Source: Acidimicrobiales bacterium (GTDB lineage Bacteria > Actinomycetota > Acidimicrobiia > Acidimicrobiales > Bin134). From it: a stretch of DNA of 64,000 nt. Positions 3-21,117 of this stretch are shown piece after piece. Positions within the stretch are counted from its first letter, which is position 1. Every line of letters starts with the position of its first letter. Both the position numbers and the translations under genes were made by a program. The notes under the pieces were generated by a model that did no database searches, was not told the origin of the DNA, and saw only the letters and a list, made by a program, of their open reading frames with translations. The stretch covers positions 2,396,909-2,460,908 of the forward strand of contig OZ220474.1 in NCBI GenBank assembly GCA_965115985.1, written 5' to 3'.

Positions 3-179
3 TGGCCAGTGATTCTGGTTGCCGGTTTGGTCGTCATGGGGTTCTGTGTCCTTGAGGGGCTGGCCATCGGTGATGATCTGCACGAGGCCGGCAGTCGGGT
101 TGGCTCCGGCCTGTTCGTCGCCTATGCCGGAGGGAGCACGGCCTCGGTGGGCGGTGTGCTGCTCAGACCGAGCCGGTGA
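3..179 (+). CDS. 3' end of a hydrophobic membrane protein (5' partial, runs off window)
   Basis: Frame 3 is open from the window edge to TGA 177-179 and reads WPVILVAGLVVMGFCVLEGLAIGDD... It has no in-window start, so it is absent from the ORF track. Confidence 0.3.
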   Translation, partial: WPVILVAGLVVMGFCVLEGLAIGDDLHEAGSRVGSGLFVAYAGGSTASVGGVLLRPSR

Positions 180-316
180 GGTTCACCCGCCTAATAGCCG
201 GCAACTCCACCTCGAAGGGGCACAACCAGCATCACCGTAAGCGAGGTTCACCCGCCTAATAGCCGGCAACTCCACCTCGAAGGGGCACAACCAGCATCAA
301 CAGGTTCACCCGCCCC
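178..316. repeat. Tandem repeat, 65/58-bp unit x2.3
   Basis: gaggttcacccgcc... restarts at 178, 243 and 302. The array begins on the stop codon of the partial upstream CDS and fills the gap to the convergent kinase gene. Confidence 0.9.
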
Positions 317-334
317 ATCTTGGACGAGCGGGAA

Positions 335-2584
335 CTAGGCCGGGCGGGTCAGCGGCAGTTCCACCACCATCTCGGTGAACTCGCCCGGTTCGGTGTTGAC
401 GGTGATGGTGCCACCATGCTCCCGAATGATGTCGTTGGACAGGGCCAGGCCCAAACCGGTGCCCTCATTGGTGGGTTTGGTGGTGAAGAAGGGGTCGAAG
501 ATTTTCTCGGCCACATCCGGGGGGATGCCGTTTCCGTTGTCCCTCACGCTGAGGATGGCGCTCTCCTCGGTACGGCGGGTCCTCAAAACGATGGTGGGGG
601 AGAAGTCATCGGCATCGGAGGAGCCCGATTCGATCAGTTCCTTCTGCTTCTTGTTGGTGGCGTAGCCGGCATTGGCCACGAAGTTGAGAAACACCCGGCC
701 CAGGTCTTGGGGCACGACCTCGAGTTGCCCCATGTCCGGGTCGAACTCCTCGTCCATGGTGACCTGGAAATCGGGATCCTGGGCTCGAGCACTGTGAAAG
801 GCCAGCAGGGAGTGCTCATGGATCAGATCGTTGATGTTGGTGAGCTGGGTCTCGCCCCCGCCCCGGCCCATCAGGAGCATGTCCTGGACGATCCGGTTGG
901 CCCGGCTGCCGTGCGATTGAATGCGTTCCAGGTTGTCGTTCAGGTCCTGGTTGATCTCCTCCAGCAGGTCACGCTGCTCGTCGGTGAGGTCGTCGATGAA
1001 CTCTTCCACTATCTCGGTCATCTCTTCGAGCAATTCGGCCGATGCCGCGGAGAAGTTGTTGATGAAGTTGAGCGGATTGCGGATCTCATGCGCCACTCCG
1101 GCGGTGACCTCTCCCAGCGCGGCCAGCTTCTCCCGGGCGACGATCTGATCCTGGGCTTGGCCCAACTCCTCCAGCACGGCTTGAAGTTCGTTGTTGCGCT
1201 CGCCCAGTTCCTGGGCCAGTTCCTCCACCAGGTTCAACCGCTGAATCTCCAGGGCGTGGCGACGGAACACCTCAAGAGCCGAGGCCATCTCCGCGATCTC
1301 GTCGCGACCACTGACCTCCACCTCCTCCTCCAACTCCCCCTTGGCCAGTGTTCGCATGCGACTGGACAGGCGGCCGATTCGGCGCAGTAGGACACGGCCC
1401 ACGAAGAGCCAACTGATCAGGCCGGCACCGATGACACCGATAACGCTGATGATCACCAGCAGGATTCGGGCAGTGCTGATGGTTTGCGCGGAGTTCTCGG
1501 TGGCCTCGTCGGCCCCGGCCCGGGCGGCGTCCACGAGGGCGTTGACCTCTTCCAGAAGTTCGACCGCGATGGTTTGGTTCTGAGCCAGAAGGTTGTTCTG
1601 GCGCTCGATGATCTTCAGGCGGTCGACCGATACCTCAAAGGCGCTTTGCTCCCCGTTGCCGAGGGCCAGTAGCTGGTTCACCGCTGATTCCAGTCCCGGG
1701 ATCATTTCCGACGCGGCCACCGCGGACAGGCTGATCCGGATGCGATCCTCCACCGACTCGAAGCTCTCCTGTAGAGGTTCGACGAACTCGGCGGTGGAAG
1801 CAATCAGAGCGCTGCCCATCAATTCGGATGCTTGGGCAACGTCGGCCTGCAACGCGTTGAAGTGTCGATAGAGGAGCAGCTCGTCTCCCGATGTGCGAGT
1901 GGCGGCATCGGTGGGCTCGGAAACGAAGTCTCGATATCCGGTTACCTGGAAGAAGAGTTGGTCGTCGATGGCGGGCAGAATGATGCTGTTGGCTTGATCG
2001 CTCAGAGCCGGAATCTGGTTCTGGAGTTTTTCGATCTCTCCGGTCAAGCCGTAGTAGTGGGGCATATCGGCAGTTATGGTCGTGATGTTCGTCTCCAACG
2101 TTCTGGCGGATTCCCGGATTGCTTCAACGTGTACGTCTCCCGGGTTCTCATCGGCGAGGAGTTCAAAATTCTGCTTGAACTCCTGTTGGGCAGTGGTGAC
2201 TTCTGCGGAGATGGTCGAGAATTGATCGGGGGAAGACGTGGTTAGTCTGGGAGCGGCTGCCACCAGAGCGCTGCTCAATTCGGCCAGCCGAAATGCGCCG
2301 GCCAACTCGGGTACGCTTTCCTGGTTCACTCGATTCTGGCTTCTGCTTACGTTGGTGAACGAGATCCAACTCACGACGCTGGCTACGATGGTCAGAACAA
2401 CGGCACCGAAGATCCCGGCATACAATTGAGTGGAAATCCGTCGATGGGCGGCCGGACGTTGAGCGCCGGTGTCGGGGTTCTCGATCTCGGGGGTTTGTGG
2501 GTCGGGTGTGGCGGTCACGGGCTGGTACTCCCCGGTGTCGGGGTTCTCGATCTCGGGGGTTTCTGGGTCGGGTGTGGCGGTCAC
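335..2584 (-). CDS. Sensor histidine kinase (2 TM, ~300-aa extracytoplasmic domain, HAMP, HisKA, HATPase_c)
   Basis: H-box HEIRNPL, DNGNGI and GTGLGL ATP-lid motifs, a HAMP-like segment after the second TM. GTG start 2584 overlaps the upstream TGA (GTGA). An alternative in-frame GTG lies at 2518 in the second repeat copy. Confidence 0.9.
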   Translation of the reverse strand: MTATPDPETPEIENPDTGEYQPVTATPDPQTPEIENPDTGAQRPAAHRRISTQLYAGIFGAVVLTIVASVVSWISFTNVSRSQNRVNQESVPELAGAFRLAELSSALVAAAPRLTTSSPDQFSTISAEVTTAQQEFKQNFELLADENPGDVHVEAIRESARTLETNITTITADMPHYYGLTGEIEKLQNQIPALSDQANSIILPAIDDQLFFQVTGYRDFVSEPTDAATRTSGDELLLYRHFNALQADVAQASELMGSALIASTAEFVEPLQESFESVEDRIRISLSAVAASEMIPGLESAVNQLLALGNGEQSAFEVSVDRLKIIERQNNLLAQNQTIAVELLEEVNALVDAARAGADEATENSAQTISTARILLVIISVIGVIGAGLISWLFVGRVLLRRIGRLSSRMRTLAKGELEEEVEVSGRDEIAEMASALEVFRRHALEIQRLNLVEELAQELGERNNELQAVLEELGQAQDQIVAREKLAALGEVTAGVAHEIRNPLNFINNFSAASAELLEEMTEIVEEFIDDLTDEQRDLLEEINQDLNDNLERIQSHGSRANRIVQDMLLMGRGGGETQLTNINDLIHEHSLLAFHSARAQDPDFQVTMDEEFDPDMGQLEVVPQDLGRVFLNFVANAGYATNKKQKELIESGSSDADDFSPTIVLRTRRTEESAILSVRDNGNGIPPDVAEKIFDPFFTTKPTNEGTGLGLALSNDIIREHGGTITVNTEPGEFTEMVVELPLTRPA

Positions 2585-2599
2585 GGGCTGGTACTCCCC
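2468..2599. repeat. 66-bp tandem duplication x2 spanning the SBP-stop/kinase-start GTGA junction
   Basis: ggtgtcggggttctcgatctcggggg... begins at 2468 and 2534 with 1 mismatch. It encodes the duplicated TATPDP(E/Q)TPEIENPDTG N-terminus of the kinase. Confidence 0.95.
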
Positions 2600-4014
2600 A
2601 GAGCACTAGCGGATCGGTAGCGGCCATTGGCATCCAGGACGGTCAAAAAGACGGCATCCGAACCTTGGTTGTCCACTGCCCGGTCTGCTTCTTCGCCGAA
2701 GTCGAGCACGAATCCGTCGATGCTGATCCGACCGGCACCCAATAGGTTCTCCAGGAAGCAGTCGCGGGTCGGATCGGAACCGCACGCTTCCAGTCCGGCT
2801 ATGGCCAGCCTCCCGGCCAGGTATCCCTCGAGGGACACGAAACCGGGTTCGGCTTCGGGGTCGAACCCGGCCAGGGCTCGGGTATAGGAGGCCACGACCG
2901 GGATGGAGTTGTCGTGGGGGAACGGAACCACCTGGGTGACGTAAACACCCTCCCCGCCCGTCCCCAACTCGGTGGCCAACGCGTTACTGCCCACGAAGGA
3001 GACCGTCATGAATATGGGATCGAAGCCGATGTGGCGGGCCCAGGATATGACGGCGGCGACCGGTTGATAGGCCCCCACCAGGATCACTGCCTCGGGATCG
3101 CCCCGTCTCAGGTCGAGCAGCGCCGACTTCACTGCGGTGGTGTTGCGGGGGTAAACGCCGGTGGCCACCGGGACCATTCCTCGCCGCCCCAGTGCGGCCA
3201 ACACCCCGTTGTAACCGGCCCGCCCGAACGAGTCGTCCTGGAACATCACCGCGATACGACTGATGCCGGCATCGGTGGTGAGACGTTCGACCATCTCCTC
3301 GGTCTCCTGGGCGTAGGAGGCCCGGAGGTTGACGATGTTGTCCTGACCGTCGTTGCGCAAAAAGCCCGCTCCGGTGAACGGAGCTACGTAGGGGACCCCG
3401 GCATCGGCTGCCACCGGGGTGGCCGAACGCGAAGTCGGTGTGCCCACCGCGCCGATGAGGGCGAAAACCCGCTCTTCGTCGATGAGGGCCTGGGTGTTGG
3501 TTATGGCCGCCTCGGGTTCGTAAGCGTCGTCGCGGGTTGTCAACTCGAGGCGACGTCCGTTCACCCCGCCCCGGCGGTTCACCTCCTCGAAGGCTGCCTG
3601 GATGCCGAGCCTCATGTTGATGCCCAGTTCCTGAGCCGGCCCGCTCAGGGCTGCCGACTGCCCGAAAACCACCCGGTCGTCGAAAACCCCGAGTCTTCCC
3701 GGGTCCACCAAGGTCGGTTCGGGAGTCGGCGGGGGCGTTGAAGGAGGAACCACCGGATCGGACCCCCCCGATCGACATCCCGATGCGATGAGGGCCAGCG
3801 CGGCGATGACGAGTCCTACTGGTCGCAGGGCGCGGGGTTTGATGACGAGTCCTACTGGTCGCAGGGCGCGGGGTTTGATGACGAGTCCTACTGGTCGCAG
3901 GGCGCGGGGTTTGATGACGAGTCCTACTGGTCGCAGGGCGCGGGGTTTGATGACGAGTTGGAGTTCCCTCGGTTTGGTGGACAGGTTGTTTTGCTGGATT
4001 GTAGTGGTGTTCAT
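2581..4014 (-). CDS. Periplasmic substrate-binding lipoprotein, LivK/Peripla_BP_6-like; native 5' end severed by IS3, current start inside the IS end
   Basis: The mature part resembles branched-chain amino-acid binding proteins. Lipobox LIASGC is preceded by four KPRALRPVGLVI repeats. ATG 4014 lies in the IS terminal repeat. The long track ORF 2581..4593 is read-through into the IS. Confidence 0.75.
   Translation of the reverse strand: MNTTTIQQNNLSTKPRELQLVIKPRALRPVGLVIKPRALRPVGLVIKPRALRPVGLVIKPRALRPVGLVIAALALIASGCRSGGSDPVVPPSTPPPTPEPTLVDPGRLGVFDDRVVFGQSAALSGPAQELGINMRLGIQAAFEEVNRRGGVNGRRLELTTRDDAYEPEAAITNTQALIDEERVFALIGAVGTPTSRSATPVAADAGVPYVAPFTGAGFLRNDGQDNIVNLRASYAQETEEMVERLTTDAGISRIAVMFQDDSFGRAGYNGVLAALGRRGMVPVATGVYPRNTTAVKSALLDLRRGDPEAVILVGAYQPVAAVISWARHIGFDPIFMTVSFVGSNALATELGTGGEGVYVTQVVPFPHDNSIPVVASYTRALAGFDPEAEPGFVSLEGYLAGRLAIAGLEACGSDPTRDCFLENLLGAGRISIDGFVLDFGEEADRAVDNQGSDAVFLTVLDANGRYRSASALGSTSP
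3805..3958. repeat. 36-bp in-frame tandem repeat x4.3 (left half of an array split by IS3)
   Basis: Unit gatgacgagtcctactggtcgcagggcgcggggttt encodes VIKPRALRPVGL. The array ends at the IS3 target-site duplication. Confidence 0.95.
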
Positions 4015-4880
4015 GCGGCTTGGTGGTGGGTGTAGGTCTGGGCGGGGGTGCGGTGGCCGAGTGAGCTGTGGTGGCGTTGGCGGTTGTGGAACACTTCGAT
4101 GTAGTCGAACAGGATGGTTCGGAGTCGTGTGTGGTGGAGGTGTTCCCAGGGGCCGTGGATGTGGCGGATTTCTTTTTTGAGGGTGGCCCAGAACGATTCC
4201 ATGGCGGCGTTGTCGTAGCAATCTCCGACGCTTCCCCAGGAGCCGACGAAGTCGGCTTGGGCGAGGCGGTCGCTGAACGCCATGGAGGTGTATTGGGTTC
4301 CGTGGTCGCTGTGGTGGATCAGTCCGGGTTCGGGTCGGCGGCGGGCGATGGCCATGGTCAAGGCGTCGACGACGAGGTCCGTGGTTTGGTGCTCGGCGAT
4401 GGACCAGCCCACCAGGGTGCGGTCGCAGAGGTCCAGGATTCCCGCCAGGTGGACTTTGGTGTCGGCGCAACCGAACGAGGTTATGTCGGCCACCCATTTG
4501 CGGTCGGGAGCCTCGGCGGTGAAGTCCCGGTCCAGCAGGTCCCCGGCGGGCACTGTTTTGGCGCCGGGATCGCGGCGACGACGGTGGGAACACGCCCCCA
4601 CCAGGCGGTTCGCTCGCATCAGGCGGGCCACCCGGTTGCGGCCCACGCGGTGACCGCGGCGGCGGAGCTGCTCGTGGATCCTCGGGGAGCCGTAGGTGCG
4701 TCTCGAGGTCTGGTGGATCTCGCGGATCTCGACCAAAAGCTCGGCGTCGGAGGTCTCACGCCTGGACGGGCGTCTTTTGGCCCAGGCGTAGAACCCGGAC
4801 CGGCACACCCCGGCGACGCGGCACAAATCGGTGACCCGGTACTCGGCTCGGTGGTCGTGGACGAACCGGTAGCCGATCAC
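4011..4880 (-). CDS. IS3 transposase OrfB (DDE integrase core)
   Basis: rve-type sequence (HSDHGTQYTS, CYDNAAMESFWATLK). It overlaps orfA by 4 nt. Stop TGA 4011-4013 overlaps ATG 4012-4014 of the SBP fusion start. Confidence 0.9.
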   Translation of the reverse strand: MIGYRFVHDHRAEYRVTDLCRVAGVCRSGFYAWAKRRPSRRETSDAELLVEIREIHQTSRRTYGSPRIHEQLRRRGHRVGRNRVARLMRANRLVGACSHRRRRDPGAKTVPAGDLLDRDFTAEAPDRKWVADITSFGCADTKVHLAGILDLCDRTLVGWSIAEHQTTDLVVDALTMAIARRRPEPGLIHHSDHGTQYTSMAFSDRLAQADFVGSWGSVGDCYDNAAMESFWATLKKEIRHIHGPWEHLHHTRLRTILFDYIEVFHNRQRHHSSLGHRTPAQTYTHHQAA

Positions 4881-5173
4881 CGGTTCGTCTCCCTCGCGAA
4901 ATACGCGGCCGCCTTCCCCAGAATCTCCAAATCGATCTCCTGCTGAGCCACCCGCCTGCGCAACCTCTTCAACTCCTCACGCTCGGACACGCTCAACGCC
5001 TCGGGATCGGCCGCTCGCTCGCGTCGCTCACGATCGGCCTTGACCCAGTTCCACAGCGTTCCCTCGCTGATCCCCAACGACCGGGCCACCCCAGCAACCG
5101 AACGACCCGACGACACCGCCAACGCCACCGCCTCACGACGAAACTCAGGCGGATACTTCGACACACGACCCAT
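4877..5173 (-). CDS. IS3 transposase OrfA (HTH)
   Basis: MGRVSKYPPEFRREAV... with a leucine-zipper-like end. An AGGAGG site lies upstream of ATG 5173. The track ORF extends to 5239, but that part is the IS end. Confidence 0.85.
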   Translation of the reverse strand: MGRVSKYPPEFRREAVALAVSSGRSVAGVARSLGISEGTLWNWVKADRERRERAADPEALSVSEREELKRLRRRVAQQEIDLEILGKAAAYFARETNR

Positions 5174-5238
5174 ACGAGCCTCCTTCCCCAGGGACCGAAC
5201 CCCCATAATCAGGTGTCCACCAAACCGGGGCAACTCCA

Positions 5239-5411
5239 AGTCCTACTGGTCGCAGGGCGCGGGGTTTGATGACGAGTCCTACTGGTCGCAGGGCGCGGGG
5301 TTTGGGGACGAGTCCTACTGGTCGCAGGGCGCGGGGTTTGATGACGAGTCCTGCTGGTCGCAGGGCGCGGGGTTTGGGGACGAGTCCTACTGGTCGCAGG
5401 GCGCGGGGTTT
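5239..5411. repeat. 36-bp tandem repeat x4.8 (right half of the IS-split array; alternating gat/ggg variants)
   Basis: Same unit as 3805-3958. Joining 3958 to 5242 restores a seamless 9-copy array. Confidence 0.95.
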
Positions 5412-5432
5412 CCTCCGGCCGGCGGGTTTCAC
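5242..5432 (-). pseudogene. Detached original 5' end of the SBP gene
   Basis: GTG 5432 overlaps the TGA of the upstream kinase gene (GTGA) and reads MKPAGRRKPRALRPVGLV... through the repeats until the IS3 insertion. Confidence 0.7.
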
Positions 5433-5860
5433 GACTCGGGAAGCACGACCAGCTTGAGGTGGTTGCGGCCGTGCTCGTTGTGGTACTCCAAATCCTGGCC
5501 CAAGGTCCGCACCAGATAGAGCCCCAGACCACCGATGGGGCGCTCGGCCAGTGACAACGTCAGGTCGGGCTCGGGGGCGTCCTCGAGTGGATTGAAGAGG
5601 GCTCCGTCGTCGGTCACGCGGATGGTCAGCGCTCCGTCGTCGGATTCCAGCTCGAGGTCGATGGTCGTGAGTCCGCTGGTGTCCCCATGGGTGAGGGTGT
5701 TGAGCACCAGTTCTTCCAGTATCAGATTGGCCCGCATGGTCAACGTCACCGGCCAGTTCTCCGCCTCGGCCATTTCTTCCAGGACATTCTCGATCTCCGG
5801 CAGGACGGACGAGGGTTCACCCTGTTCCAGAGGGAGAGAGAAGCGCAGCGATCGCTGCAT
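5429..5860 (-). CDS. RsbW/SpoIIAB-like anti-sigma-type serine kinase (HATPase_c_2)
   Basis: 143 aa with NTLTHG and GGLGLYLV motifs, in an operon with STAS and PP2C genes. Confidence 0.8.
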   Translation of the reverse strand: MQRSLRFSLPLEQGEPSSVLPEIENVLEEMAEAENWPVTLTMRANLILEELVLNTLTHGDTSGLTTIDLELESDDGALTIRVTDDGALFNPLEDAPEPDLTLSLAERPIGGLGLYLVRTLGQDLEYHNEHGRNHLKLVVLPES

Positions 5861-6103
5861 GTCAGCAGCTAGCTCCCACGGTCGGCGCGAGGATCGAGTG
5901 GCTAGCTCCCACGGTCGGCGCGAGGATCGAGCGGCTACCTCCCACGGTCGGCGCGAGGATCGAGCGGCTACCTCCCACGGTCGGCGCGAGGATCGAGCGG
6001 CTACCTCCCACGGTCGGCGCGAGGATCGAGCGGCTACCTCCCACGGTCGGCGCGAGGATCGAGCGACTAGCTCCCACGGTCGGCGCGAGGATCGAGGCGG
6101 CCA
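5861..6103. repeat. 33-bp tandem repeat x7 filling the whole intergenic gap
   Basis: Unit ggctacctcccacggtcggcgcgaggatcgagc with contiguous copies and no spacers. It carries the 80-codon ORF 5862..6104. Confidence 0.95.
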
Positions 6104-7255
6104 TCAGGGGCGGCGAAGCGTCAGACAGGTGATGTCGTCGGACTGGGGGGCGTCGCCCGTGAAACTCCTCACACTCTCGAACACCGCCTGGTTGGCGGCC
6201 GACGCGCTGTCGGGGGGGTGACCGTTGAAGACCTCGGTCAAACGATGCATACCGAACTGTTCGCTGGTGGCGTTCATGGCCTCGGTGACCCCATCGGTGA
6301 ACAACACGATGGTGTCCCCCGGGGCCAACGTGATCGTCTCCTGGGAGTAGGTGATGTCGGGAGCGACCCCCAGGGCTACACCATCGGTGAGCGGCAACTC
6401 GGTGACCGTGCCGTCCCTGCCGACCAGAAGCGGGGGGTCATGGCCCGCGGTCGAATAGGTGAACGACCCGGTGTCCGGGTTGAACAGGGCATAGATCAAT
6501 GTCACGAACATGAAGGTGGGGTTGTCCTGATGGAGTTGGTTGTTGACCTCGCCCAGCACCATTTCCGGGTCTCGGACACCGATGGCCGCCCCTTTCAGTG
6601 CGGTACGGCTGGACATCATGAACATCGACGCGGGGATTCCCTTGTCGGACACGTCGGCCACCACGAGGCCGATTTTGTCCTCGAGCGTGAAATAGTCGTA
6701 GAAGTCGCCGCCGACATTGCGAGCCGGTTCCATGTTGGCGGCCACTTCGTATCCGTCGTTGGCCGGGGGGGTCTTGGGCAGGATGGATTGCTGGAGTTGG
6801 CTGGCAATGCTCAGCTCGTTCTGAAGGGCCACCAGTTGGTCTCGGGACGACAACGCCTCCCGCCACTCGGCCAAGTGTTCCAAGGTGCGGGTGATGGTGA
6901 TCTTGAGGTCGTCGAAGTCGATGGGCTTGGTTACGAAATCGAAGGCCCCCCGGTTCATGGCGGTGCGGATGTTGTCCATGTCACCGTAGGCGGAGATGAT
7001 CACCGCCCTGAGATTGGGATCAACCCCGGGAAGCTGCTGGAGCAGGGTGAGGCCATCCATCTTGGGCATGTTGATGTCCGACAGCACCATATCGATGGTC
7101 GGATCGGCGTTGAGCTTTTCCAACGCCTCCACCCCATTTTGAGCAAAAACGAACTCGTATTCGTTGGAGCGGATCTTGCGGCGCATCCTCTGAAGGATCA
7201 GAGGTTCGAGGTCCGGTTCGTCGTCGACGACCAGGATTCTGTAGGGATGATGCAA
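6104..7255 (-). CDS. Response-regulator receiver fused to PP2C/SpoIIE phosphatase (RsbU-like)
   Basis: N-terminal REC domain (VVDDEPD...DINMPKMDG) and a C-terminal PP2C-type domain (GGDFYD, DGVTEA). Confidence 0.9.
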   Translation of the reverse strand: MHHPYRILVVDDEPDLEPLILQRMRRKIRSNEYEFVFAQNGVEALEKLNADPTIDMVLSDINMPKMDGLTLLQQLPGVDPNLRAVIISAYGDMDNIRTAMNRGAFDFVTKPIDFDDLKITITRTLEHLAEWREALSSRDQLVALQNELSIASQLQQSILPKTPPANDGYEVAANMEPARNVGGDFYDYFTLEDKIGLVVADVSDKGIPASMFMMSSRTALKGAAIGVRDPEMVLGEVNNQLHQDNPTFMFVTLIYALFNPDTGSFTYSTAGHDPPLLVGRDGTVTELPLTDGVALGVAPDITYSQETITLAPGDTIVLFTDGVTEAMNATSEQFGMHRLTEVFNGHPPDSASAANQAVFESVRSFTGDAPQSDDITCLTLRRP

Positions 7256-7259
7256 GGGA

Positions 7260-7589
7260 TTACCCCTGTTTGGCGTCTTCCACCGATGGAAATACGTTGA
7301 TGATCTGGTCGAAACCGCTGATGCGGAATACGTCGCCCACGGTCTCCGACAACGAGCAGATGCTGAAGGACTTGTTCTGCTTGTCGAGGCCCTGGGCCGC
7401 CATCAGCAGTACCCGCAACCCGGCACTGCTTATGTATTCGAGGCCGCCGAGATCCAGGATGACCTTCTGGTCGCCGGGATCGAACAAGCCCTGGAGGGAC
7501 TCGAGGAGATCGGATGCGTTGGATCCGTCCACCCGGCCGGAAGCATTGACGACCAGTACATCACCATTGCGATCATGACTCAATTCCAT
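7260..7589 (-). CDS. STAS-domain anti-sigma-factor antagonist (RsbV/SpoIIAA-like)
   Basis: MELSHDRNGDVLVVNASGRVD...YISSAGLRVL. ATG 7589 is preceded by AAGAGAGG. The track start 7649 is probably too long. Confidence 0.85.
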   Translation of the reverse strand: MELSHDRNGDVLVVNASGRVDGSNASDLLESLQGLFDPGDQKVILDLGGLEYISSAGLRVLLMAAQGLDKQNKSFSICSLSETVGDVFRISGFDQIINVFPSVEDAKQG

Positions 7590-7674
7590 GGCTGGGGCCT
7601 CTCTTTTCTTATTCCGTGGCCGAATATTTTGCCAGCCAGCACTATACACAACCCACCGGGCTCAACGGGTAGCG

Positions 7675-7828
7675 GCGACCGGCAGCGCTGGTGGGGGCGA
7701 GGGGTCAGCGGGGTTGGGGCGCGCTGGTGGGGGCGAGGGGTCAGCGGCGACCGGCAGCGCTGGTGGGGGCGAGGGGTCAGCGGGGTTGGGGCGCGCTGGT
7801 GGGGGCGAGGGGTCAGCGGGGTTGGGAG
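7675..7828. repeat. 36-bp tandem repeat x4 (72-bp higher order) copying the 3' end and stop of the thiolase-like gene
   Basis: The 26-nt core gcgctggtgggggcgaggggtcagcg occurs at 7685, 7721, 7757 and 7793, with alternating 10-nt linkers. The last core contains the real stop at 7813-7815. Confidence 0.9.
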
Positions 7829-8991
7829 AGGATGAGCGCGCTGGTGGGGACGGCGGTGCCTGCGGTGGCCAGCACGTTCTGCACGTTGTCGATCTGGTTC
7901 ACCGAGGTGCCCCGGATCTGCCGCACGCCCTCGGCGATGCCGTTTAGACCGTGGATGTAGGCTTCCCCGAGCTGCCCGCCGTTGGTGTTGATGGGTAGGC
8001 GGCCGTCCCGCTCCAGATGGCCGTCGCGGATGAAGTCCTTGGCCTCGCCCCGAGCGCAGAAGCCGAACTCCTCCAGTTGGGGAAGTACCAGTGGGGTGAA
8101 GTGGTCGTAGATTATGGCGGTCCGGACGTCATCGGCCGACAGGCCGCTGGACCGGTAGAGCTGGCGGGCGCACAACCCCATCTCGGGGATGCCGGTGATG
8201 CTGTCCCGGTAGTAGCTCCTCATCATGTGCTGGTCCTCGGCCGCGCCCTGCGCGGCGGCGGCGACCACGGCCGGCTTCTGCTTCAGGTCCCGGGCCCGCT
8301 CGGCCGAGGTCACCAGCAGGGCCTGGGCCCCGTCGGTCTCCTGGCAGCAGTCCAGCAGGTGCAGCGGCTCCACGATCCAGCGGCTGTTCTGGTGGTCCTC
8401 CAGGGTGATGGGCCGCTGGTAGAAGTGGGCGTGGGGGTTGGTGGCCGCGAACGACCGGTCCACCACCGACACCCGGCCGAAGTCCTCGGAGGTGGCTCCG
8501 TACTCGTGCATGTAGCGGGTGGCGAACATCGCCACCCAGGAGGCCGGGGTGACCAGCCCGAACGGCGAGCTCCACGAGAAGCTGACCTCGGCGGCTTCGG
8601 CCCCGGCGGGCCGATCCTGCACCCCGGTACCGAACCGATGCCAGGAGCGCTCGTTGAAGGCCCGGTAGCACAGCACGTAGTCGGCTGCCCCGGAGTAGAC
8701 GGCCTGACAGGCCAGGGCGACCACCCCGCAGGCCGCCCCGCCCCCATGATGGACCATGGAGAAGTGGGTCAGCTCCTCGACGCCCAGGTTGCGGGCCAAC
8801 TCTATTTCGGGATTCTGCTCGGCCGAGTAGGTCACCATGCCGTTGACCTTCTCCGGGGGGAGGCCGGCGTCCTCGCAGGCGGCCAGGCAGGCTTCCACCG
8901 CCTGGGCCATGGGGGTGCGGCCCGATTCCTTGGTGAACCGGGTGGCTCCGATGCCGGCGATGGCGCAGTGGTAGGCGTATTTCAGGGTCAT
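7813..8991 (-). CDS. Thiolase-fold protein, SCP-x/lipid-transfer (Ltp)-type
   Basis: 392 aa. MTLKYAYHCAIAGIGATRFTKESGR... is typical of non-canonical thiolases that pair with DUF35 proteins. Confidence 0.8.
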   Translation of the reverse strand: MTLKYAYHCAIAGIGATRFTKESGRTPMAQAVEACLAACEDAGLPPEKVNGMVTYSAEQNPEIELARNLGVEELTHFSMVHHGGGAACGVVALACQAVYSGAADYVLCYRAFNERSWHRFGTGVQDRPAGAEAAEVSFSWSSPFGLVTPASWVAMFATRYMHEYGATSEDFGRVSVVDRSFAATNPHAHFYQRPITLEDHQNSRWIVEPLHLLDCCQETDGAQALLVTSAERARDLKQKPAVVAAAAQGAAEDQHMMRSYYRDSITGIPEMGLCARQLYRSSGLSADDVRTAIIYDHFTPLVLPQLEEFGFCARGEAKDFIRDGHLERDGRLPINTNGGQLGEAYIHGLNGIAEGVRQIRGTSVNQIDNVQNVLATAGTAVPTSALILSQPR

Positions 8992-10445
8992 GGCGTTCTC
9001 CTACGACCGGGGAGGACCAGTTCGGCCGTTCCGGTCACGTGCGGTCCTCGGCTGTTCAGGCCCTGGAAGGAGACCTCGGCGGTTCCCACTCCATCGACCT
9101 CCTGCTTGGCGGTTACCGACCCCGACAGGGTCATGCAGTCGTAGGGATAGTTGGGGGCACCGAGGCGGATCCTCAGGTTCTTGAGGATGGCGTCGGGACC
9201 GGCCCAGTCACCGATGTAGCGGGCCGAGAGGCCGCTGGACGTCAGGATGTTCATGAATATGTCCTCGGACCCCTTGCGGATCGCCATGTCCCGGTCGTGG
9301 TGGACGTCCTGATAATCGCGTGACGCAATGGCGGTGGACACGATCAACGTGGGGGTGAGCGGGATCGGGCACAGCGGCAGCTCGTCACCCACGTTCACCT
9401 CGTCGAGGGTGAGGGTGGTCGGATTGCGGGGGATCCGGGCGGGCCGGAACATCGGCAGGCTCACGTCCTCGTGGGTCGGCATGTGCCAGACCTCGAGGGG
9501 CATGCCCACCTTGAGCTGTTCCGATCGGCAGTCGGTAATGTTGGTGACCAGGCGGACACCCTCCTCCAGCTCGACCAGTCCGATGTTCAGCGGGTAGTCG
9601 AACGAGGGGACCCGGGGGTGGTGGGCCACCACGTAGGAATAGAGAGTGCCCCTACCGGAGACCACGCGGTACCCCATGGAGGTGGCCCCGCAGGCCGGGC
9701 AGCGGTTACCGGGCGGGTGCTGGAGATACCCGCACTCCCGGCACTGCTGGATTCGCAGCTCACCGACCCGGCTGCCCTCCCAGAAGAAGTCGGTATCCTG
9801 GTTGCGACCGGGGCGGGGGCGCGGCGGCCGCTCGCCGGTGTCGTTGCTGGTGCTACTGCTGCTGGTGCCGCTTTTTCCACTGGTGCTGCCGGCGGTGGCG
9901 CTGCTGCGTCCCGTGCCGGGGCGGAACTTGAGGATGCGGAAGAACATGGATCCGACGTGGCCGCCGTGCTGGTCGTGGTACTCGGCCTCGGTGGTCACGA
10001 AGTGGCCGATGCCCAGGGCGGTTTGCTTCTCGTCCGAGACCTCCACCAGCTTCACGGTTCCGGTGAGGTGGTCGCCGAGCCGGAGATAGCGGTGGTAGAC
10101 GTGCTCGGAGTTGGTGGCCACCACGCCGACGTATCCGGCTTGGTCCAGCATGGCGTACACCCCCGAGGCGGGATCCTGGGGGTCGTCCTCCCGGGGGACC
10201 AGCCCGATCATGGTCCAGGCGTTGAGCATGGCCGGAGGGGCGGTGATCTCCCCGTGGGGGCCCTGGCGAGCGGCGTCGGGATCGGTGTATAGGGGGTTGG
10301 CGTCGTCCATGGCGTCGCACCAGTGGTGGATCATGGGTTGGTTGACCGGATCACGAGCAGTGGTCGGGGTGCCGGTGCGGCCGACCTGTCGACGCAGCTC
10401 GGCTACGAACGCCTCCTTCTGCTCGTCGGTCATCCCATCGCTCAT
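8988..10445 (-). CDS. MaoC_N hotdog - DUF35 (Zn-ribbon/OB) - MaoC hotdog fusion protein
   Basis: CRECGYLQHPPGNRCPACG ribbon plus OB segment sits between two hotdog-like halves. ATG 10445 is preceded by GGGGGGAG. The track start 10577 lies inside the upstream repeat array. Confidence 0.7.
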   Translation of the reverse strand: MSDGMTDEQKEAFVAELRRQVGRTGTPTTARDPVNQPMIHHWCDAMDDANPLYTDPDAARQGPHGEITAPPAMLNAWTMIGLVPREDDPQDPASGVYAMLDQAGYVGVVATNSEHVYHRYLRLGDHLTGTVKLVEVSDEKQTALGIGHFVTTEAEYHDQHGGHVGSMFFRILKFRPGTGRSSATAGSTSGKSGTSSSSTSNDTGERPPRPRPGRNQDTDFFWEGSRVGELRIQQCRECGYLQHPPGNRCPACGATSMGYRVVSGRGTLYSYVVAHHPRVPSFDYPLNIGLVELEEGVRLVTNITDCRSEQLKVGMPLEVWHMPTHEDVSLPMFRPARIPRNPTTLTLDEVNVGDELPLCPIPLTPTLIVSTAIASRDYQDVHHDRDMAIRKGSEDIFMNILTSSGLSARYIGDWAGPDAILKNLRIRLGAPNYPYDCMTLSGSVTAKQEVDGVGTAEVSFQGLNSRGPHVTGTAELVLPGRRRTP

Positions 10446-10491
10446 GCTCCCCCCTTTGCTGCCGCGCACGTTAGCGCGGCCGGCACTGGGG

Positions 10492-10742
10492 GGTGGAAAG
10501 TGAGGCGCATCGGTCATCTTCTGGGGGGTTGTCTTGGTCAGCGCGACTGGCATTGCGGGGTGGAAAGTGAGGCGCATCGGTCATCTTCTGGGGGGTTGTC
10601 TCGGTCAGCGCGACTGGCATTGCGGGCAGAAGGTGAGAGTGCGGGCATCGGTCATCTTCTGGGGGGTTGTCTCGGTCAGCGCGACTGGCATTGCGGGCAG
10701 AAGGTGAGAGTGCGGGCATCGTAGGTGCGGTGTTGGAGCGGG
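10492..10742. repeat. 67/71-bp tandem repeat x3.7 copying the 3' end and stop of fpg
   Basis: ...tcagcgcgactggcattgcgg... recurs with unit starts at 10492, 10559, 10626 and 10697. The real stop is at 10676-10678. Confidence 0.9.
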
Positions 10743-11488
10743 GTGGCGCAGCGCAGGCACGGTTGGCCGGAGCGGCCGTAGCAGGCCAGGGCGTTTTGGT
10801 GGTTTCCCCGGCCGCCGTCGGCGTCGCGGTAGTCCCGAAGCGTGGTGCCACCGTTGGCCAGCCCGGCTTCCAGAACCTGGACGAGGGCGGTGTGGAGCTT
10901 CGTGGCCGCGCCCCGGCTGATCCGGCGCTCGGCCGGGTGAATCCCGGCCATCCACAGGGCCTCGGTGGCGTAGATGTTGCCGACACCGGCCACCGGCTTC
11001 TGGCTCAACAACTGGGTGGGGATGCGTCGGCGGCTCCGGCGCAGGGCCTGATGGAGGCTCTCGGTGGTGAACTCGGGGCTGAGAGCGTCCGGGCCTTGAG
11101 CAGCCAACGTGGGGATGGTGTCGTACTGGCCCTCGGGCACGCACCGGATCCGACCGAAGCGGCGGACGTCCCGGAAGACCAGTCGCTCGTCGTGATCGAG
11201 TTGCCACCATGCCCGGATGTGGGGATCCTCGGTGCTGTCGGTGCTGTCGGCGGTGCTGACCATGAGCGAGCCGGTCATGCCCAGGTGGACGATGAGTTCC
11301 CGTCCGTCGTCCAGGGGGGCGATCAGGTACTTGCCTCGGCGGTTGACGTCCTGGATCGTGGTACCGACGGCGGCCCGGGCCGGGGTGAACTTGTCCGAGG
11401 GATGGCTGTGGGCGGCCCGGATGCGCCGTCCTCGAAGTCGGGGCACCAGTTGCCGGCGGATCGTCTCCACCTCGGGTAGTTCGGGCAC
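10676..11488 (-). CDS. mutM: Formamidopyrimidine-DNA glycosylase (Fpg/MutM)
   Basis: GTG 11488 is followed by PELPEVETIRRQL. The C-terminal zinc finger is CLRC...CPQC. 270 aa. Confidence 0.9.
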   Translation of the reverse strand: MPELPEVETIRRQLVPRLRGRRIRAAHSHPSDKFTPARAAVGTTIQDVNRRGKYLIAPLDDGRELIVHLGMTGSLMVSTADSTDSTEDPHIRAWWQLDHDERLVFRDVRRFGRIRCVPEGQYDTIPTLAAQGPDALSPEFTTESLHQALRRSRRRIPTQLLSQKPVAGVGNIYATEALWMAGIHPAERRISRGAATKLHTALVQVLEAGLANGGTTLRDYRDADGGRGNHQNALACYGRSGQPCLRCATPLQHRTYDARTLTFCPQCQSR

Positions 11489-11508
11489 CGACCCGATTGT
11501 CGCACGGA

Positions 11509-11747
11509 TGCACGGGTGGGGCTTATTGGCGGGAACCGAGGAGGTCGGTGGTGACGCGGTGCAGGAGCGGGGTTTATCGGCGGGAACCGAGGAGGTCGGT
11601 GGTGACGCGGTGCAGGAGCGGGGTTTATCGGCGGGAACCGAGGAGGTCGGTGGTGACGCGGTGCAGGAGCGGGGTTTATCGGCGGGAACCGAGGAGGTCG
11701 GTGGTGACGCGGTGCAGGAGCGGGGTTTATCGGCGGGAACCGAGGAG
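11509..11747. repeat. 51-bp tandem repeat x4.6 copying the 3' end and TAA stop of the nucleotidyltransferase gene
   Basis: ttatcggcgggaaccgaggag... occurs at 11523 (variant), 11574, 11625, 11676 and 11727 (native). Confidence 0.95.
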
Positions 11748-12533
11748 GGTGCGGGCAATCTCCAGGTCCTCGGGGTTGGTGATCCCGATCCAGGATTCGT
11801 CGGTGGTGACGACCCGGACGGTGAGGGCCCCGGCCTCCATTCGGGCCGCGACGGCCCGGGGGAGGAGGTACTCGGCGGTGGGACTGTGGCGGTTCTCCTC
11901 GAGGAAGCGGGCGAAGCCGTCCCGCAGGCTGTTCATGAACCCGGGGGGGAAGGCCCACAGGTTCATGGACACCAGGGTGTCGGCGGGAAAATCGTTGCCG
12001 GCTCGAGATATCCCCTCCTGTTCGGTGATGCCGGTGAGACGATCACCGTCCACGCGGCACACGCCCCGGGTCACCGAGCCCTCGGCCGGCAGGGTGCGGT
12101 CGAGGTGGTAGCCGCACAACCAGGCCTCGTTGTCGGCCATTGTTCTCATGGCTCGGGCCAGGGCGGTGTACGCGGTGGGGCCGTAGTAATCGTCGGCGTT
12201 GCCCACCATGAACGGGCCGGTCACCGCCCCGGCGGCCGACAGCACGGCGTGGGCCGTGCCCCATGGCTTCGGGCGGGGAGGGCCGTGCTCGTCCTGGCGC
12301 ACGAAGGTCACCTCCAGATCGGCGGGTAGTCCGCCGCGAGCCTCGAAGTGTCGGTTCACGTCGGCCTCGATGTCGCTTCGCACGATGAGCACCACTCGGT
12401 CGGCCCCCGCGGCCCGGGCATCGGTAATGGCGAAGTCCAAAAAGGCCTCGCCCCGGGGTCCCACCCGGGCGAGTTGCTTGGTCCCGCCGAAACGCGACCC
12501 CAGCCCCGCGGCCATCACTATGAAAGTGAACAT
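11727..12533 (-). CDS. Nucleotidyltransferase-family protein (sugar-phosphate NTP-transferase fold)
   Basis: N-terminal MAAGLGSRFGG..K signature. 268 aa. Confidence 0.75.
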   Translation of the reverse strand: MFTFIVMAAGLGSRFGGTKQLARVGPRGEAFLDFAITDARAAGADRVVLIVRSDIEADVNRHFEARGGLPADLEVTFVRQDEHGPPRPKPWGTAHAVLSAAGAVTGPFMVGNADDYYGPTAYTALARAMRTMADNEAWLCGYHLDRTLPAEGSVTRGVCRVDGDRLTGITEQEGISRAGNDFPADTLVSMNLWAFPPGFMNSLRDGFARFLEENRHSPTAEYLLPRAVAARMEAGALTVRVVTTDESWIGITNPEDLEIARTLLGSRR

Positions 12534-12624
12534 TGTTCCAGTCTCCGGCGCAGGGTGGGCATGCAGAGGGGTTTGGCTACGGCCATCACTATGAAAGTGA
12601 ACATTGTTCCAGTCTCCGGCGCAC
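12511..12624. repeat. 71-bp-period duplication of the overlapping stop/start junction (43-nt core x2)
   Basis: gccatcactatgaaagtgaacattgttccagtctccggcgca occurs at 12511 and 12582. The upstream copy supplies the helicase TAG (12589-91) and the downstream copy supplies ATG 12533. Confidence 0.9.
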
Positions 12625-16065: not shown

Positions 16066-19000
16066 TGTTTGTCCGGTTCCTCTTCCGGTTCTTCTTCCGA
16101 GTCATCGGGTGGTTCGGCCAGATGGCGGTAGCCGGCCAGCTCGTCTCGTTCCTGCATGGTCTCCCACTCCCGGCGGCGGTCCTGGGTGCCGAGCCGGTCG
16201 GCGTTGCAGTAGTCGCAACGCTGGCTGTACTGCCCTTCCGTACGATCGGGTTGGGGTCGGTCGCAGAACACCCCGGCCTCGATGCCCTCGGTGATGGCGT
16301 CCACCACCGTGCGGAAACGATCCATCGCTCCGTCGTCCAGCGGGTAGCCGAAGGTATGGAACCCCCCGTCCTCGGTGACGAACCAATACTGGGTGGTGAC
16401 CGGGGCATCGGGGTTCTCGGTGAGTGCCCGGGCGGCCAACCCGTAAACCGGAAGCTGGAGCCGGGTTCCCCGTTGGACGGGGTCCCCGTTCTGGCTGCGG
16501 GCATCCAGGTCCCGGTAGCCATCGGCCTTGCCGGTCTTGTAGTCGGTGACCAGCAGTTTGTCGCCCCGGCCCTGATCGACCCGATCGGCCCGGCCCCTGA
16601 ACCGAACCTGCCGACCGCGGGGAAGCTCCACGGTTACCGCCTCCAAATCGTCGTCGGGCGCTCCGAACCCCAACTCGCCGGCGATGGTGGTGACGCCCGT
16701 CCGGCGACGCTGCTCGTAGTCCTCCATCAAAAAGCGGCGCAGATCGAACAGAATCCGGCTTCGGTCGTAGCCCCAGAACACCGGCGAGCCGGTCAGCCCC
16801 CGGGCCTCGGCCTCCTCGCACTGCTGCGTCCCGATGGCGACGAGCCGGTCCTGCTGCTCCCCGCTCCAGCGTTGGCCCGGTGGCGGAACCCGGCTGGCTT
16901 CCAGTTGCTCGCACAGGAACAGTTCGAGGATCCGATGAATCAGCGAGCCCTTCTCCGAGGCCGAGATCTCCGACAGTTCCTCGGGTTGATCCGCGGCCTG
17001 CACCCGCAGGACGTGCCGGAACAGGTAGCGCATCGGACAATCGGCCCACATCTCCAGGCTGGTGGGCGATACTGCGTCCCCGATCAGTCCGGCGGTGTCG
17101 AGGCCGGCCAGGTTGCCGTCGAAGCGGGTGAACCGATCCGAGGCCCGGGCGGCCATCATCTCGGCTCCCCGGGCCAGGATCGGATCATCGTCCGGCACCT
17201 GGTATCCCCTCTGGTTCGTGCGGGCGACGGGGTCGGGGCTTAGGGGTGGCTGCTCGGCCTGATTCGTATGGGCGACAAGGTCGGGGTCTTCGTGTGGCTG
17301 TCCGGCCTGGTTCGTGCGGGCGACGGGGTCGGGGCTCAAGGGTTGTTGGCGTGGGGGCCGTCCGGCCTGGTTCGCATGGGCAATGGCCTGCAACCGGAAC
17401 TCCTGGGCGGTGGCGGGGAAATCGGCGTGAAGCACCCTCCCCGAGAACGAAGGGACGTGCTCGAACCATTCGGGGGTCCGGTCGCCGGCCAGGCTCTCCA
17501 GGTTGGTGCTGTCCACCGGTTGTCCGGCCAGGGCGGTGGCGGTGTCCAGGAGCCAGCGGGACGGGTACTGTTCACAGGCCTCTCGCGAATTGCTTCGGGC
17601 GTAGATCAGGGTGCTGATCTCGGTTGAAGCCAGCACGACCAGAAAGTGGCGGTGCTGTTCGTCCAATCGGTCGGAGATCAGGGTCAGGTCGCCGCCGGTG
17701 GCCCGGCGTTCCCGGTCGGGAAGCAGGGGGTTGTCGGCGGGACTGTGGGGGAACGTTCCCTCGGCCATGCCGATGAGGATCGCCCGGCGCAGCTCCATTC
17801 CCGTGGAGGCACCGATCAGCTCGGTCAGCACCCCGTGACCTACCCGGCCGGTGCGCTTGGTGGGGGTGGCCAGCTCCGAGGTCAAGGCGTGGCGGAAGGC
17901 AGTCGGCCGGGGAGATGCCTCGATCCGGTCCAGGTTGGCCAGGCCATCGAGGACGTTTTGGATCTGATCGGCCGCATGCTGCTCGGACTCGGGCCAGGCG
18001 GCCACGGCGCTGTCGTCGGCCAGGTACTTGCCGATCAGGTCCTTGATCCACTGGCACCACGCTTCCCAGGTGGTCGGTTCGGGATCGGGGGACAGGTCGT
18101 CGATGAGTTCGGCCATGAACCGGGCGAGGGAGTCGGTGTGGTCGGCTTCTCGCCGGTGCCACTCGGCCCATCTCTCGGTCTGGTCGGGATCGTCTTGCTC
18201 TCGTTCCCCGGCTTCCCGCAGCTCCTGGGCATAGCCCCCGAGCCGGGCCCTCCACTGCTCGGTGCCCCGAACCACTCCTGCTCGGCGGGCCACTCGCTCC
18301 CAGGCCACCACCGGGATGCCCACAGGTCGGGTCTGTCCGGTGGTCTCGGTCGAAGCCATCGGGGAGGGGGCCGCCACCGACAGCAGGTCGAACACCTCGT
18401 CGCGACGGAAGTCGCGGTTGTGCAGATTGAGCAGGGCCAGCACTCCCCGTCCCACCAGCGATTCGGCCAGTGTGCGTCCGCTGGGGCCGTTGAACGGGAT
18501 GCCGGCTGCGGTTAGGTGATCCTGCAAATGGCGGATGGTGGACATGCCGCTGCCACTGAGGACGGCGATTCGATCCAAGGGAATGCCTTCTTGGGTTGCG
18601 TTGACCACCTCACGAACCGCCACCCGTACTTCCTCGTCGGCACCGGCGGTGCTGATGATTCGTTGTCCGTGGGCAGGGCTGATGCCCGCGTCGACTTCCT
18701 CGTCGGCACCGGCGGTGCTGATGATTCGTTGTCCGTGGGCAGGGCTGATGCCCGCGTCGGCTTCCTCGTCGGCACCGGCGGTGCTGATGATTCGTTGTCC
18801 GTGGGCAGGGCTGATGCCCGCGTCGGCTTGAGGTTCTTCCCCCATGCGGCCGATCGACTCCCGCACGGCGGCGTCGGCCTTGTGGTTTCCGGTGAGTCCG
18901 GCAACCACCGCGACCGTTGTTCTGCGGGCCAGGGCACCGATCATGCGCCCCTGGGACCGGGTGACCCGTTGGGGGAGGTGGATTATCACCGGGCCGAGTT

Positions 19001-19663: not shown

Positions 19664-20863
19664 TCAGAAGTGGGTGAGTTGGGTGTGGGCCAGGCGGCCC
19701 ATGGCGGGGGCCATGAGGGCTTGTTCTCGGAGTGCGTTTCGGGCCAGGTAGTGGGCGAGTTGGGCGTCGTCGGTGAGGTCGAGGTGATGTCGGTCGGCCT
19801 GGTCCTGTTCGGCCAGTGTCGGGCCGATGCGGTCGACCATGTCGAGGTAGCGAACCAGGCGGGCGATTGATTTGGCCCGGACTGCGGCGTACCCGTCCAG
19901 GGCGGGGGTGATGACCGTGCGCAGGTCGTCCAGAACGGCGGCGTAGATGTCGCTCACCTCGGTGTCGGGGGGTTCGGGCAGCTCCGGGGGTTCCACCACC
20001 ACCCCCAGGGCCCGGCAGACCAGCTCGGCGGTCACTCGCCGATGGAGAACGGCGAACAGCTTGCCCATGCCCGGGTCGCCACCGGCGGTACCCGGAACCC
20101 CCAACCCGACCAGGTTGCGCACCTGGCAGGCCAGTTGCCAGTACCGCACCCGCTCGACGTCCACCGGGCCGTCGTACCAGCCGAACGCGGTATCGACGTC
20201 CACGAACGGGGTGAGCATGGCCCGTACCGTTATCCAGGCCAGATCCTCCATGGGGTCACCGACGTGGGCCAGTTCCCAGTCGCACAGTCCGGTCACCCGC
20301 CGGCCGTCGTGCATCACGTTGCCCGGCCCCAGATCACCATGAACCAGCACCGCCCGCTCGGGCGGCCCGGGCGCAGCCTCGGCCAGGTGGCGCAGACCGA
20401 GGTCGATCAGTGGATCGGCCTCGGGGCAGTGTTCGTCGTAGATGCGAGTCCACCGGGCCAGGTCGTCGACCTCCAGGTGATCGGGCGGTTCCAGAGCATG
20501 GAGGGCGTTCACCTGACCCATGAAGTCCTGGGCCACCTCCGCCTCGTCCAGCGGCCCCGGAGCGCCCTCGAGGAACTCCAGCAGCAGGACTCGTCCATCG
20601 GGGTCGGCACCGTAGGATGCGGCCGCCCTCACGGGGGTGTCGGCCAGCCAGTCGTACACCCGGGCCTCGCGGGCCAGGTCGTATCCCACGATGGTCAGCG
20701 GAGACGTTCCGTTGTCCATTCTCAAAAAACGGCGCTGGCCGTCCAGCAAGCCCACCACCCACGCCTGGCGGGACGCCCCTCCCGGTATCCGCACCGCCTC
20801 GACGACCGACTGCCCGCAGCGATGCTCGATCCAGTCGATCAGCTCCCGGTCGAGGTTGTTCAT
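19664..20863 (-). CDS. Phosphotransferase-family kinase (APH/choline-kinase fold)
   Basis: LVHGDLGPGNVM catalytic loop and DWE motif. ATG 20863 (MNNLDRELIDWIEHRCG) is the only repeat-borne start followed by the gene body. Confidence 0.8.
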   Translation of the reverse strand: MNNLDRELIDWIEHRCGQSVVEAVRIPGGASRQAWVVGLLDGQRRFLRMDNGTSPLTIVGYDLAREARVYDWLADTPVRAAASYGADPDGRVLLLEFLEGAPGPLDEAEVAQDFMGQVNALHALEPPDHLEVDDLARWTRIYDEHCPEADPLIDLGLRHLAEAAPGPPERAVLVHGDLGPGNVMHDGRRVTGLCDWELAHVGDPMEDLAWITVRAMLTPFVDVDTAFGWYDGPVDVERVRYWQLACQVRNLVGLGVPGTAGGDPGMGKLFAVLHRRVTAELVCRALGVVVEPPELPEPPDTEVSDIYAAVLDDLRTVITPALDGYAAVRAKSIARLVRYLDMVDRIGPTLAEQDQADRHHLDLTDDAQLAHYLARNALREQALMAPAMGRLAHTQLTHF

Positions 20864-21117
20864 CGGGTGGATCCCGCCTGGCGTCCCCCACCGATCCAGT
20901 CGATCAGCTCCCGGTCGAGGTTGTTCATCGGGTGGATCCCGCCTGGCGTCCCCCACCGATCCAGTCGATCAGCTCCCGGTCGAGGTTGTTCATCGGGTGG
21001 ATCCCGCCTGGCGTCCCCCACCGATCCAGTCGATCAGCTCCCGGTCGAGGTTGTTCATCGGGTGGATCCCGCCTGGCGTCCCCCACCGATCCAGTCGATC
21101 AGCTCCCGGTCGAGCAT
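20827..21117. repeat. 65-bp tandem repeat x4.4 containing the kinase start codon and first 12 codons
   Basis: cgatccagtcgatcagctcccggtcgaggttgttcatcgggtgg... occurs at 20827, 20892, 20957, 21022 and 21087 (partial variant). Confidence 0.95.

Follow-up and report, generated by a model that had tools for sequence, protein, structure and literature searches.

The window analyzed here, a 64,000-nucleotide (nt) stretch of an Acidimicrobiales bacterium contig (OZ220474.1, positions 2,396,909 to 2,460,908), carries the fpg (mutM) gene for the DNA glycosylase Fpg together with a tandem repeat array at each of its two junctions with neighboring genes. A gene map built from a GC3-based open reading frame (ORF) filter and Pfam domains placed fpg on the reverse strand, between a nucleotidyltransferase gene upstream and a FAS1-dehydratase/ChsH2-like gene downstream (Table 1). 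Close relatives were obtained by exact-protein look-ups, and the nearest ones found are metagenome-assembled genomes of Acidimicrobiales/Acidimicrobiaceae; a scan of GTDB species representatives gave closest matches 55% identical, and a scan of JGI metagenomes with Fpg, which gave nothing closer than 56% identity, was used only as a control set. Gene order was kept in every close relative fetched, running from a helicase-nuclease pair through the nucleotidyltransferase, fpg, ChsH2-like dehydratase and thiolase genes to a set of regulatory genes (STAS, SpoIIE phosphatase, anti-sigma kinase, binding protein and histidine kinase). The nucleotidyltransferase is the upstream neighbor of fpg in L081, L083, L084 and L165-L168, and L168 lacks the dehydratase and thiolase genes.

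The fpg gene is intact when read from GTG 11488. The codons directly after this GTG (CCC GAA CTA CCC GAG GTG GAG) read PELPEVE, and the resulting 270-aa product contains the Fapy_DNA_glyco, H2TH and zf-FPG_IleRS domains of Pfam. It scored 260.3 bits against NCBIfam NF002211 (cut-off 212) and 240.8 bits against TIGR00577 (cut-off 203.3), with residues 1-268 lying on positions 1-273/274 of these equivalog profiles, end to end. The C-terminal zinc finger, read from the translation, is of the form CX2CX16CX2C (CLRC-16 residues-CPQC). In alignment with the solved MutM structure of T. thermophilus (PDB 1EE8), whose chain begins at Pro, Pro2 fell on residue 1, and nearly all of the best 120 homologues are 265-273 aa long, the sole 360-aa copy among them being the window's own gene call. 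Because of the profile match, the Pro2 alignment and the homologue lengths, we take GTG 11488 as the real start and the 270-aa short form as the real protein, in agreement with a preliminary description of this DNA that had named the same codon, directly before PELPEVE, as the only start able to give active enzyme. In Fpg the catalytic proline is exposed after removal of the initiator methionine, and an N-terminal extension would bury or block it. Within the coding sequence, a 9-bp direct duplication (GACAGCACC x 2, coding STDSTDST) at 11220-11240 lies in a loop without counterpart in solved Fpg structures, and one copy is missing from sequencing run X2, an in-frame 3-aa polymorphism.

At the upstream junction, 238 nt separate the nucleotidyltransferase stop from the fpg start. 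Each unit of the 51-bp array there consists of the last seven codons and TAA of the nucleotidyltransferase gene (ending in CTC CTC GGT TCC CGC CGA TAA), then 27-30 nt, and translates to SVPADKPRSCTASPPTS in the frame of fpg. No differences separate the four gene-proximal copies, and the last copy, adjacent to fpg, is degenerate (CCAATAAGCCCC...). The remark in the preliminary description that every unit holds the upstream TAA in another frame proved correct, with five stops counted in the nucleotidyltransferase frame across the array. In the spacer that follows, a TG-n-GACAAT motif ending 7 nt before GTG 11488 is a possible -10 element for a leaderless fpg transcript, which we offer as a guess; a consensus scan found no sigma-70 type promoter.

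The downstream junction is organized in a similar manner around the end of fpg itself. The first unit of the 67/71-bp array holds the working zinc-finger end of the gene (...DARTLTFCPQCQSR followed by TGA, coding …FCPQCQSR-TGA), and later units copy it, as had been described. By eye, we compared this array with L165, L166, L167 and L083; the last, degenerate unit carries the ancestral fpg end (…CGCGCTAA), which runs on into the ancestral spacer ahead of the next gene. Orthologues of the dehydratase gene begin at the equivalent ATGAGCGAT, 25-28 nt past the fpg stop. A longer, 529-aa dehydratase ORF starting at ATG 10577, inside the 3' array, is a spurious extension of the 485-aa gene that the orthologues back.

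Table 1. Features of the fpg locus and classes of tandem arrays in the window (positions count from the first letter of the window; single numbers are array starts)
Feature	Position	Strand	Details
FAS1-dehydratase/ChsH2-like gene	8988..10445	-	485 aa; ATG 10445 is the true start, after the GGGGGGAG motif
Spacer with GGGGGGAG motif	10446..10472	-	27 nt
67/71-bp tandem array	10473..10721	-	~3.3 copies; TRF 67/71 bp x 3.2-3.3 at 90-93%
fpg/mutM coding sequence	10676..11488	-	GTG start 11488-11486, TGA stop 10678-10676; 270 aa
Spacer between 51-bp array and fpg start	11489..11517	-	29 nt; common to sister species L165 (cgtgcgacaatcggg..gGTG)
51-bp tandem array	11518..11748	-	4.5 copies, 98% matches (TRF)
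Nucleotidyltransferase gene	11727..12533	-	268 aa; own TAA at 11729-11727, within the first array unit
TTG opening the 360-aa ORF	11756..11758	-	inside the nucleotidyltransferase gene in another frame, 31 nt before its stop
44-nt perfect direct repeat	12509..12623	-	spaced 71 nt; nucleotidyltransferase start and leader duplicated
Arrays starting in a gene 3' end and containing its stop	7667, 10473, 11518, 32115, 36540, 38858, 43313		n = 7
Arrays duplicating a gene start region	20827, 37696, 44169, 12509
Array spanning an overlapping stop/start, in frame	2466
Arrays after a stop or between genes			several
Arrays internal to genes			a few

Comparison with the relatives showed that both arrays are additions to a compact ancestral arrangement. 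In L083, L084, L166 and L167, whose Fpg proteins are 77-82% identical to that of the window, 3 nt separate the upstream stop from the fpg start (ATG-CCC-GAA, PELPEVE), the next gene begins 25-28 nt past the fpg stop, and neither fpg junction carries an array. The sister species L081/L165 (Fpg 86% identical) carries a different duplication at the same upstream junction, 34 bp x 2, which also holds the nucleotidyltransferase end with its TAA and is followed by the window-like cgtgcgacaatcggg..gGTG spacer; only this fpg-proximal spacer is common to the two species at the junction. The degenerate fpg-proximal copy thus predates the split between them, and the identical copies are recent, with a separate origin in each lineage.

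The arrays also differ between close strains. Runs X1-X3 (DNA-type contigs, library type unrecorded) provided an independent view of the locus, and X1 and X2 are both at least 99% identical to the window in the flanks. In X1, the word depth of the 51-bp unit was 304 compared to 70-79 in the flanks, or ~4 perfect copies, which fits the four identical copies of the window, yet in X2 it was only ~2.3-2.8 times that of the flanks. Over the 3' array, word depth in X2 was 633 at 10473-10545 versus 191 in the flank. In strain X3 (~95% identical), a single contig runs through the region; in it, a 155-nt stretch of the 51-bp array gives way to 24 other letters, and a 171-nt stretch of the 3' array corresponds to 103 letters (68 nt less). 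Arrays missing or shorter in X3 lie at 253-330, 10492-10664, 11540-11696, 12508-12580 and 18684-18832; within the initial 20 kb, the array at 18684-18832 has one of its three 66-bp units there, and the one at 253-330 is shortened. Both arrays flanking fpg are therefore variable number tandem repeats (VNTRs) in the ordinary sense, with head-to-tail units whose copy number differs between close strains. Repeats are a classic source of error in long-read metagenome assembly, but we reject this reading of the arrays as extremely improbable, given that their edges are reproduced letter for letter in contigs of independent runs, that unit depth in X1 is about four times that of the flanks, and that X3 assembles straight through a shorter version.

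The 71 nt missing from X3 at 12508-12580 belong to a direct repeat one junction further upstream, where each 44-nt copy comprises the nucleotidyltransferase start codon, its first 8 codons (MFTFIVMA) and leader, with the upstream copy overlapping the final codons of the helicase-nuclease gene and its stop. At 1.6 copies, this repeat was not called by Tandem Repeats Finder (TRF). The same helicase/nucleotidyltransferase junction in L165 is occupied by a perfect 10-bp x 8.2 array (AGCAAGGCTT; L165 9034-9115, equal to L081 3034-3115).

The preliminary description had drawn attention to the upstream array being open in the fpg frame from an ATG at 11758, giving a 360-aa ORF. The frame is indeed stop-free from 11758 into fpg and the ORF is 360 aa long, but the codon at 11758 is TTG. 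From this openness followed the proposal that translation entering from the array yields an N-terminally blocked, inactive Fpg, either as a cost or as a regulatory isoform. The gene caller did pick the 360-aa ORF, a period of 51 holds all copies in one frame, and GAGGA lies 8 nt upstream of TTG 11758, where it is itself conserved nucleotidyltransferase coding sequence (NPEDLE). However, openness is what chance predicts for such DNA: when random 51-mers from the window (66-68% GC) were tandemized, a given frame was open with P = 0.75, shuffles of the 51-bp unit gave P = 0.80, and the actual array leaves four of six frames open. Past TTG 11758, no ATG, GTG, TTG or CTG occurs in frame until GTG 11488, so nothing can initiate inside the array in the fpg frame.

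Nor is the extension kept outside the window. The TTG is absent from the equivalent site in L165, which has gaaaccgcc instead, and in X3 the TTG-to-GTG distance is changed by 131 nt, not a whole number of codons, which puts the extension in a different phase; the fpg frame is still open upstream there. In L165 the fpg frame is open for 128 codons upstream. The short form is what all relatives encode, and in the four array-free ones a stop lies 1 codon upstream of the fpg start. Openness is thus the default state of this DNA and carries no information, contrary to the significance first attached to it, and the 360-aa ORF is an annotation artefact, a chance by-product that misled the gene caller because high-GC repeats hold few stop codons. 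The in-frame upstream start and extension are not kept in relatives, which argues against a conserved alternative N-terminal isoform, and production of a blocked Fpg from this ORF is very unlikely.

A count of non-overlapping TRF arrays with a period of at least 28 and at least 85% identity showed that the fpg junctions are part of a window-wide pattern. The 64-kb window contains 23 long-period arrays, or 0.36 per kb, most of them at gene boundaries and two of them true RCC1 protein repeats, compared to 0.004 and 0.007 per kb in two control sets of unrelated bacterial loci (2 arrays over 0.49 Mb and 4 over 0.60 Mb). Array density was 0.24 per kb in the sister species and 0-0.05 per kb in more distant relatives. 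Extrapolated over the 3.37-Mb contig, the density of the window would correspond to the order of a thousand arrays; we found no literature describing such repeat richness in Acidimicrobiia. Array units here are 32-72 bp, and the genes flanking them are supported as real by Pfam domains. About eight out of nine successive gene junctions from 178 to 12623 carry an array, so that one on each side of fpg is unremarkable and nothing particular to this gene, although the bracketing had initially been singled out.

Two further properties of the arrays point to how they arise and persist. In an all-against-all comparison of 22 units, units were locally derived and mutually unrelated; the one related pair is an array split by an insertion sequence, and the next best scores, 29 and 27, lie at the top of the shuffle range (null maximum 27). 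Reading frames filter the arrays by period: all six arrays in frames that must stay open have a period divisible by 3, compared to 4 of 17 junction arrays (Fisher p = 0.002).

We consider it likely that local sequence at operon junctions has been duplicated in tandem, to variable copy number, by a lineage-specific and very active process of duplication and slippage, that the resulting arrays are near-neutral, and that the 360-aa ORF is an artefact. In the ancestor, fpg started 3 nt past the upstream stop and the next gene 25-28 nt past the fpg stop, and both fpg junctions have since grown to ~230-240 nt in the lineage of the window. Tandem duplications of 30-75 bp would form often in this lineage, later growing or shrinking in copy number, and selection would remove those that shift or disrupt reading frames, sparing duplications with a stop codon, duplicated starts, spacer arrays and tolerated in-frame insertions. 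Stop-containing duplications would persist because the first copy still ends the gene, leaving later copies as untranslated spacer and the protein unchanged. Array-free relatives have ~1.2 kb per gene and gaps of ~45 nt; as a rough estimate, a 50-bp duplication placed at random would fall on a junction in ~8% of cases, and the 17:6 ratio of junction to genic arrays would then need an in-frame tolerance of ~9%.

Several points weigh against this explanation. The fit to the 17:6 ratio is a back-of-envelope calculation, not a simulation, and the clustering at junctions could reflect targeting to gene ends, or function, instead of uniform mutation and filtering. Several of the junctions that have arrays in the window also have them in L165, built of different units. 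At the 3' side of fpg, the 25 nt between copies of the gene end (CCGAGACAACCCCCCAGAAGATGAC) have no counterpart in relatives, and the first event there was therefore not a simple duplication of ancestral sequence. Some initiation may occur at TTG 11758, given the GAGGA ahead of it. Finally, near-neutrality is something we infer, as are the slippage mechanism and the present transcription and translation of fpg. There is accordingly some room, though we think it unlikely, for a duplication process in this lineage (the window genome and its sister) that is Borg-like in intensity and acts or is retained at gene boundaries, with the spacers retuning operon coupling and expression, including that of the anti-mutator fpg.

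Several other features of the window were noted. A 36-bp unit is shared by 3805-3958 and 5239-5411, which have the appearance of one array interrupted by an IS3-family insertion sequence. Its transposase ORF (4011-4976) has HTH_21, rve and rve_3 domains, inverted ends (...ccaccaaaccg.gg.aactcca) bound the element, and a 3-bp duplication, ACT, marks the site of insertion; the word depth of the element in X3 is 6-10 times that of the flanks, hence it is multicopy there. A 33-bp x 7.2 array, at 5864-6101, begins with the overlapping stop and start (TGATG) that follow a SpoIIE-type phosphatase gene; if read from the ATG of TGATG, it would add a 79-aa N-terminal repeat (SRSILAPTVGG x 7) to an HATPase_c_2 anti-sigma kinase, the L165 orthologue of which is 143 aa long. 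In a perfect 65-bp x 4.4 array at 20827-21114, the repeated sequence includes the beginning of an APH-family phosphotransferase gene, its start codon and first ~10 codons (LDRELIDWI); only the last copy runs on into the gene. Two large genes at 58693-60606 and 62259-63740 consist of 111-bp (37-aa) RCC1-type repeats, genuine protein repeats and not junction arrays, with 14 RCC1_2 hits in the first. GC content is 48-55% at 34001-36000 and 54001-58000 compared to 62-71% elsewhere in the window, so these segments may be acquired DNA.

Two functional roles for the arrays were also weighed. Their position between operon genes and their 32-72 bp units resemble mycobacterial interspersed repetitive units (MIRUs), and they might act as structured RNA, as terminators or attenuators, or as dispersed mobile repeats of the MIRU or repetitive extragenic palindromic (REP) type. 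Folding energies did not surpass those of shuffles (z = -0.65 and -1.26), the whole window gave no Rfam match that reached or approached a family gathering score, and no terminator-like site was found; together with the negative promoter scan, these results led us to reject a structured RNA, terminator or promoter role. A MIRU-like dispersed family was likewise rejected, as related units at many loci were not seen within the 64 kb tested and units of different arrays are unrelated, apart from the array split by insertion. This group of roles is highly improbable.

Fpg limits oxidative mutagenesis, and the number of 51-bp copies might set fpg expression, whether by breaking its coupling to the upstream gene, by altering promoter context or through mRNA stability, so that the array would act as a contingency switch for mutation rate. 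By analogy with M. tuberculosis, where longer versions of the repeats between rnc and fpg1 are associated with higher fpg1 mRNA (Olsen et al. 2009, PMC2734929) and the copy number of promoter tandem repeats varies within populations (PMC12817950), such modulation is conceivable, and copy number does differ among X1, X2 and X3 and the fpg-proximal spacer is kept in L165. Similar arrays, however, lie at most neighboring junctions whatever the function of the gene, without singling out fpg, and none of the promoter-like, terminator-like or structured-RNA signals looked for was found. We therefore regard an expression-modulating role as doubtful, while noting that it is compatible with a neutral origin of the arrays.

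For annotation, the practical consequence is that open, high-GC repeats make gene callers extend ORFs (360 versus 270 aa for fpg, and 529 versus 485 aa for the next gene), and an Fpg annotated at 360 aa would appear to be without its catalytic N-terminus. With ~90 times more long-period arrays than controls, the lineage offers a natural system for studying how tandem duplications originate and how operon junctions tolerate them, and its unusual array density is the part worth following up.

Among known systems, the pattern in the window as a whole resembles that of Borgs, in which genic tandem repeat units are always divisible by 3 and intergenic ones mostly are not, and in which the first unit often lies in a gene end (Schoelmerich et al. 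2023, PMC9879509). The window arrays share with them a very high density, near-perfect and locally unique units, genic periods divisible by 3, and recent turnover with differences between close relatives. In contrast, Borgs are AT-rich archaeal extrachromosomal elements with an A-rich coding strand, whereas the window is DNA of bacterial gene content and 66-68% GC (62-70% over most of its length) on a 3.37-Mb contig and its units contain 13% A with no A bias. MIRUs, a family of related units over 41 loci (Supply et al. 1997, as cited in PMC2734929), are similar in having 40-100 bp tandem units between operon genes with variable copy number. They differ in that the window arrays are built from local gene ends with units unrelated between loci, and in that the ORF of a MIRU-type unit overlaps both the upstream stop and the downstream start, whereas the units here hold the upstream stop and not the fpg start. 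Tandem repeats in M. tuberculosis promoters, for which a promoter role with phenotypic consequences has been argued (Modlin et al. 2025, PMC12817950), likewise lie upstream of genes and change copy number within and between close populations, a promoter role in the window being only putative.

The closest precedent for the fpg junction is the VNTR upstream of fpg1 (Rv2924c) in M. tuberculosis, where the gap between rnc and fpg1 is occupied by 358 bp of direct repeats (ETR-F/VNTR3239), compared to 1-6 bp in most of the listed mycobacteria outside the complex; the locus varies among isolates (PMC2734929), and a contingency-switch role for mutation rate has been proposed for it. In both cases direct repeats fill the junction directly upstream of fpg in an actinobacterial gene cluster that has only a few bp there in relatives, and both are lineage-specific with copy number varying between strains. 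The sequences are unrelated and of independent origin, the upstream gene is rnc in M. tuberculosis and a nucleotidyltransferase gene here, and a second array follows fpg only in the window. The M. tuberculosis repeats extend from 40 bp past the rnc stop to the fpg start, whereas those of the window include the upstream stop and end 29 nt short of fpg, and an effect on expression was measured in M. tuberculosis and is hypothetical here. The arrays flanking fpg in the window are thus junctional VNTRs that form an independent parallel to ETR-F, and the upstream one is a second actinobacterial VNTR located directly upstream of fpg.

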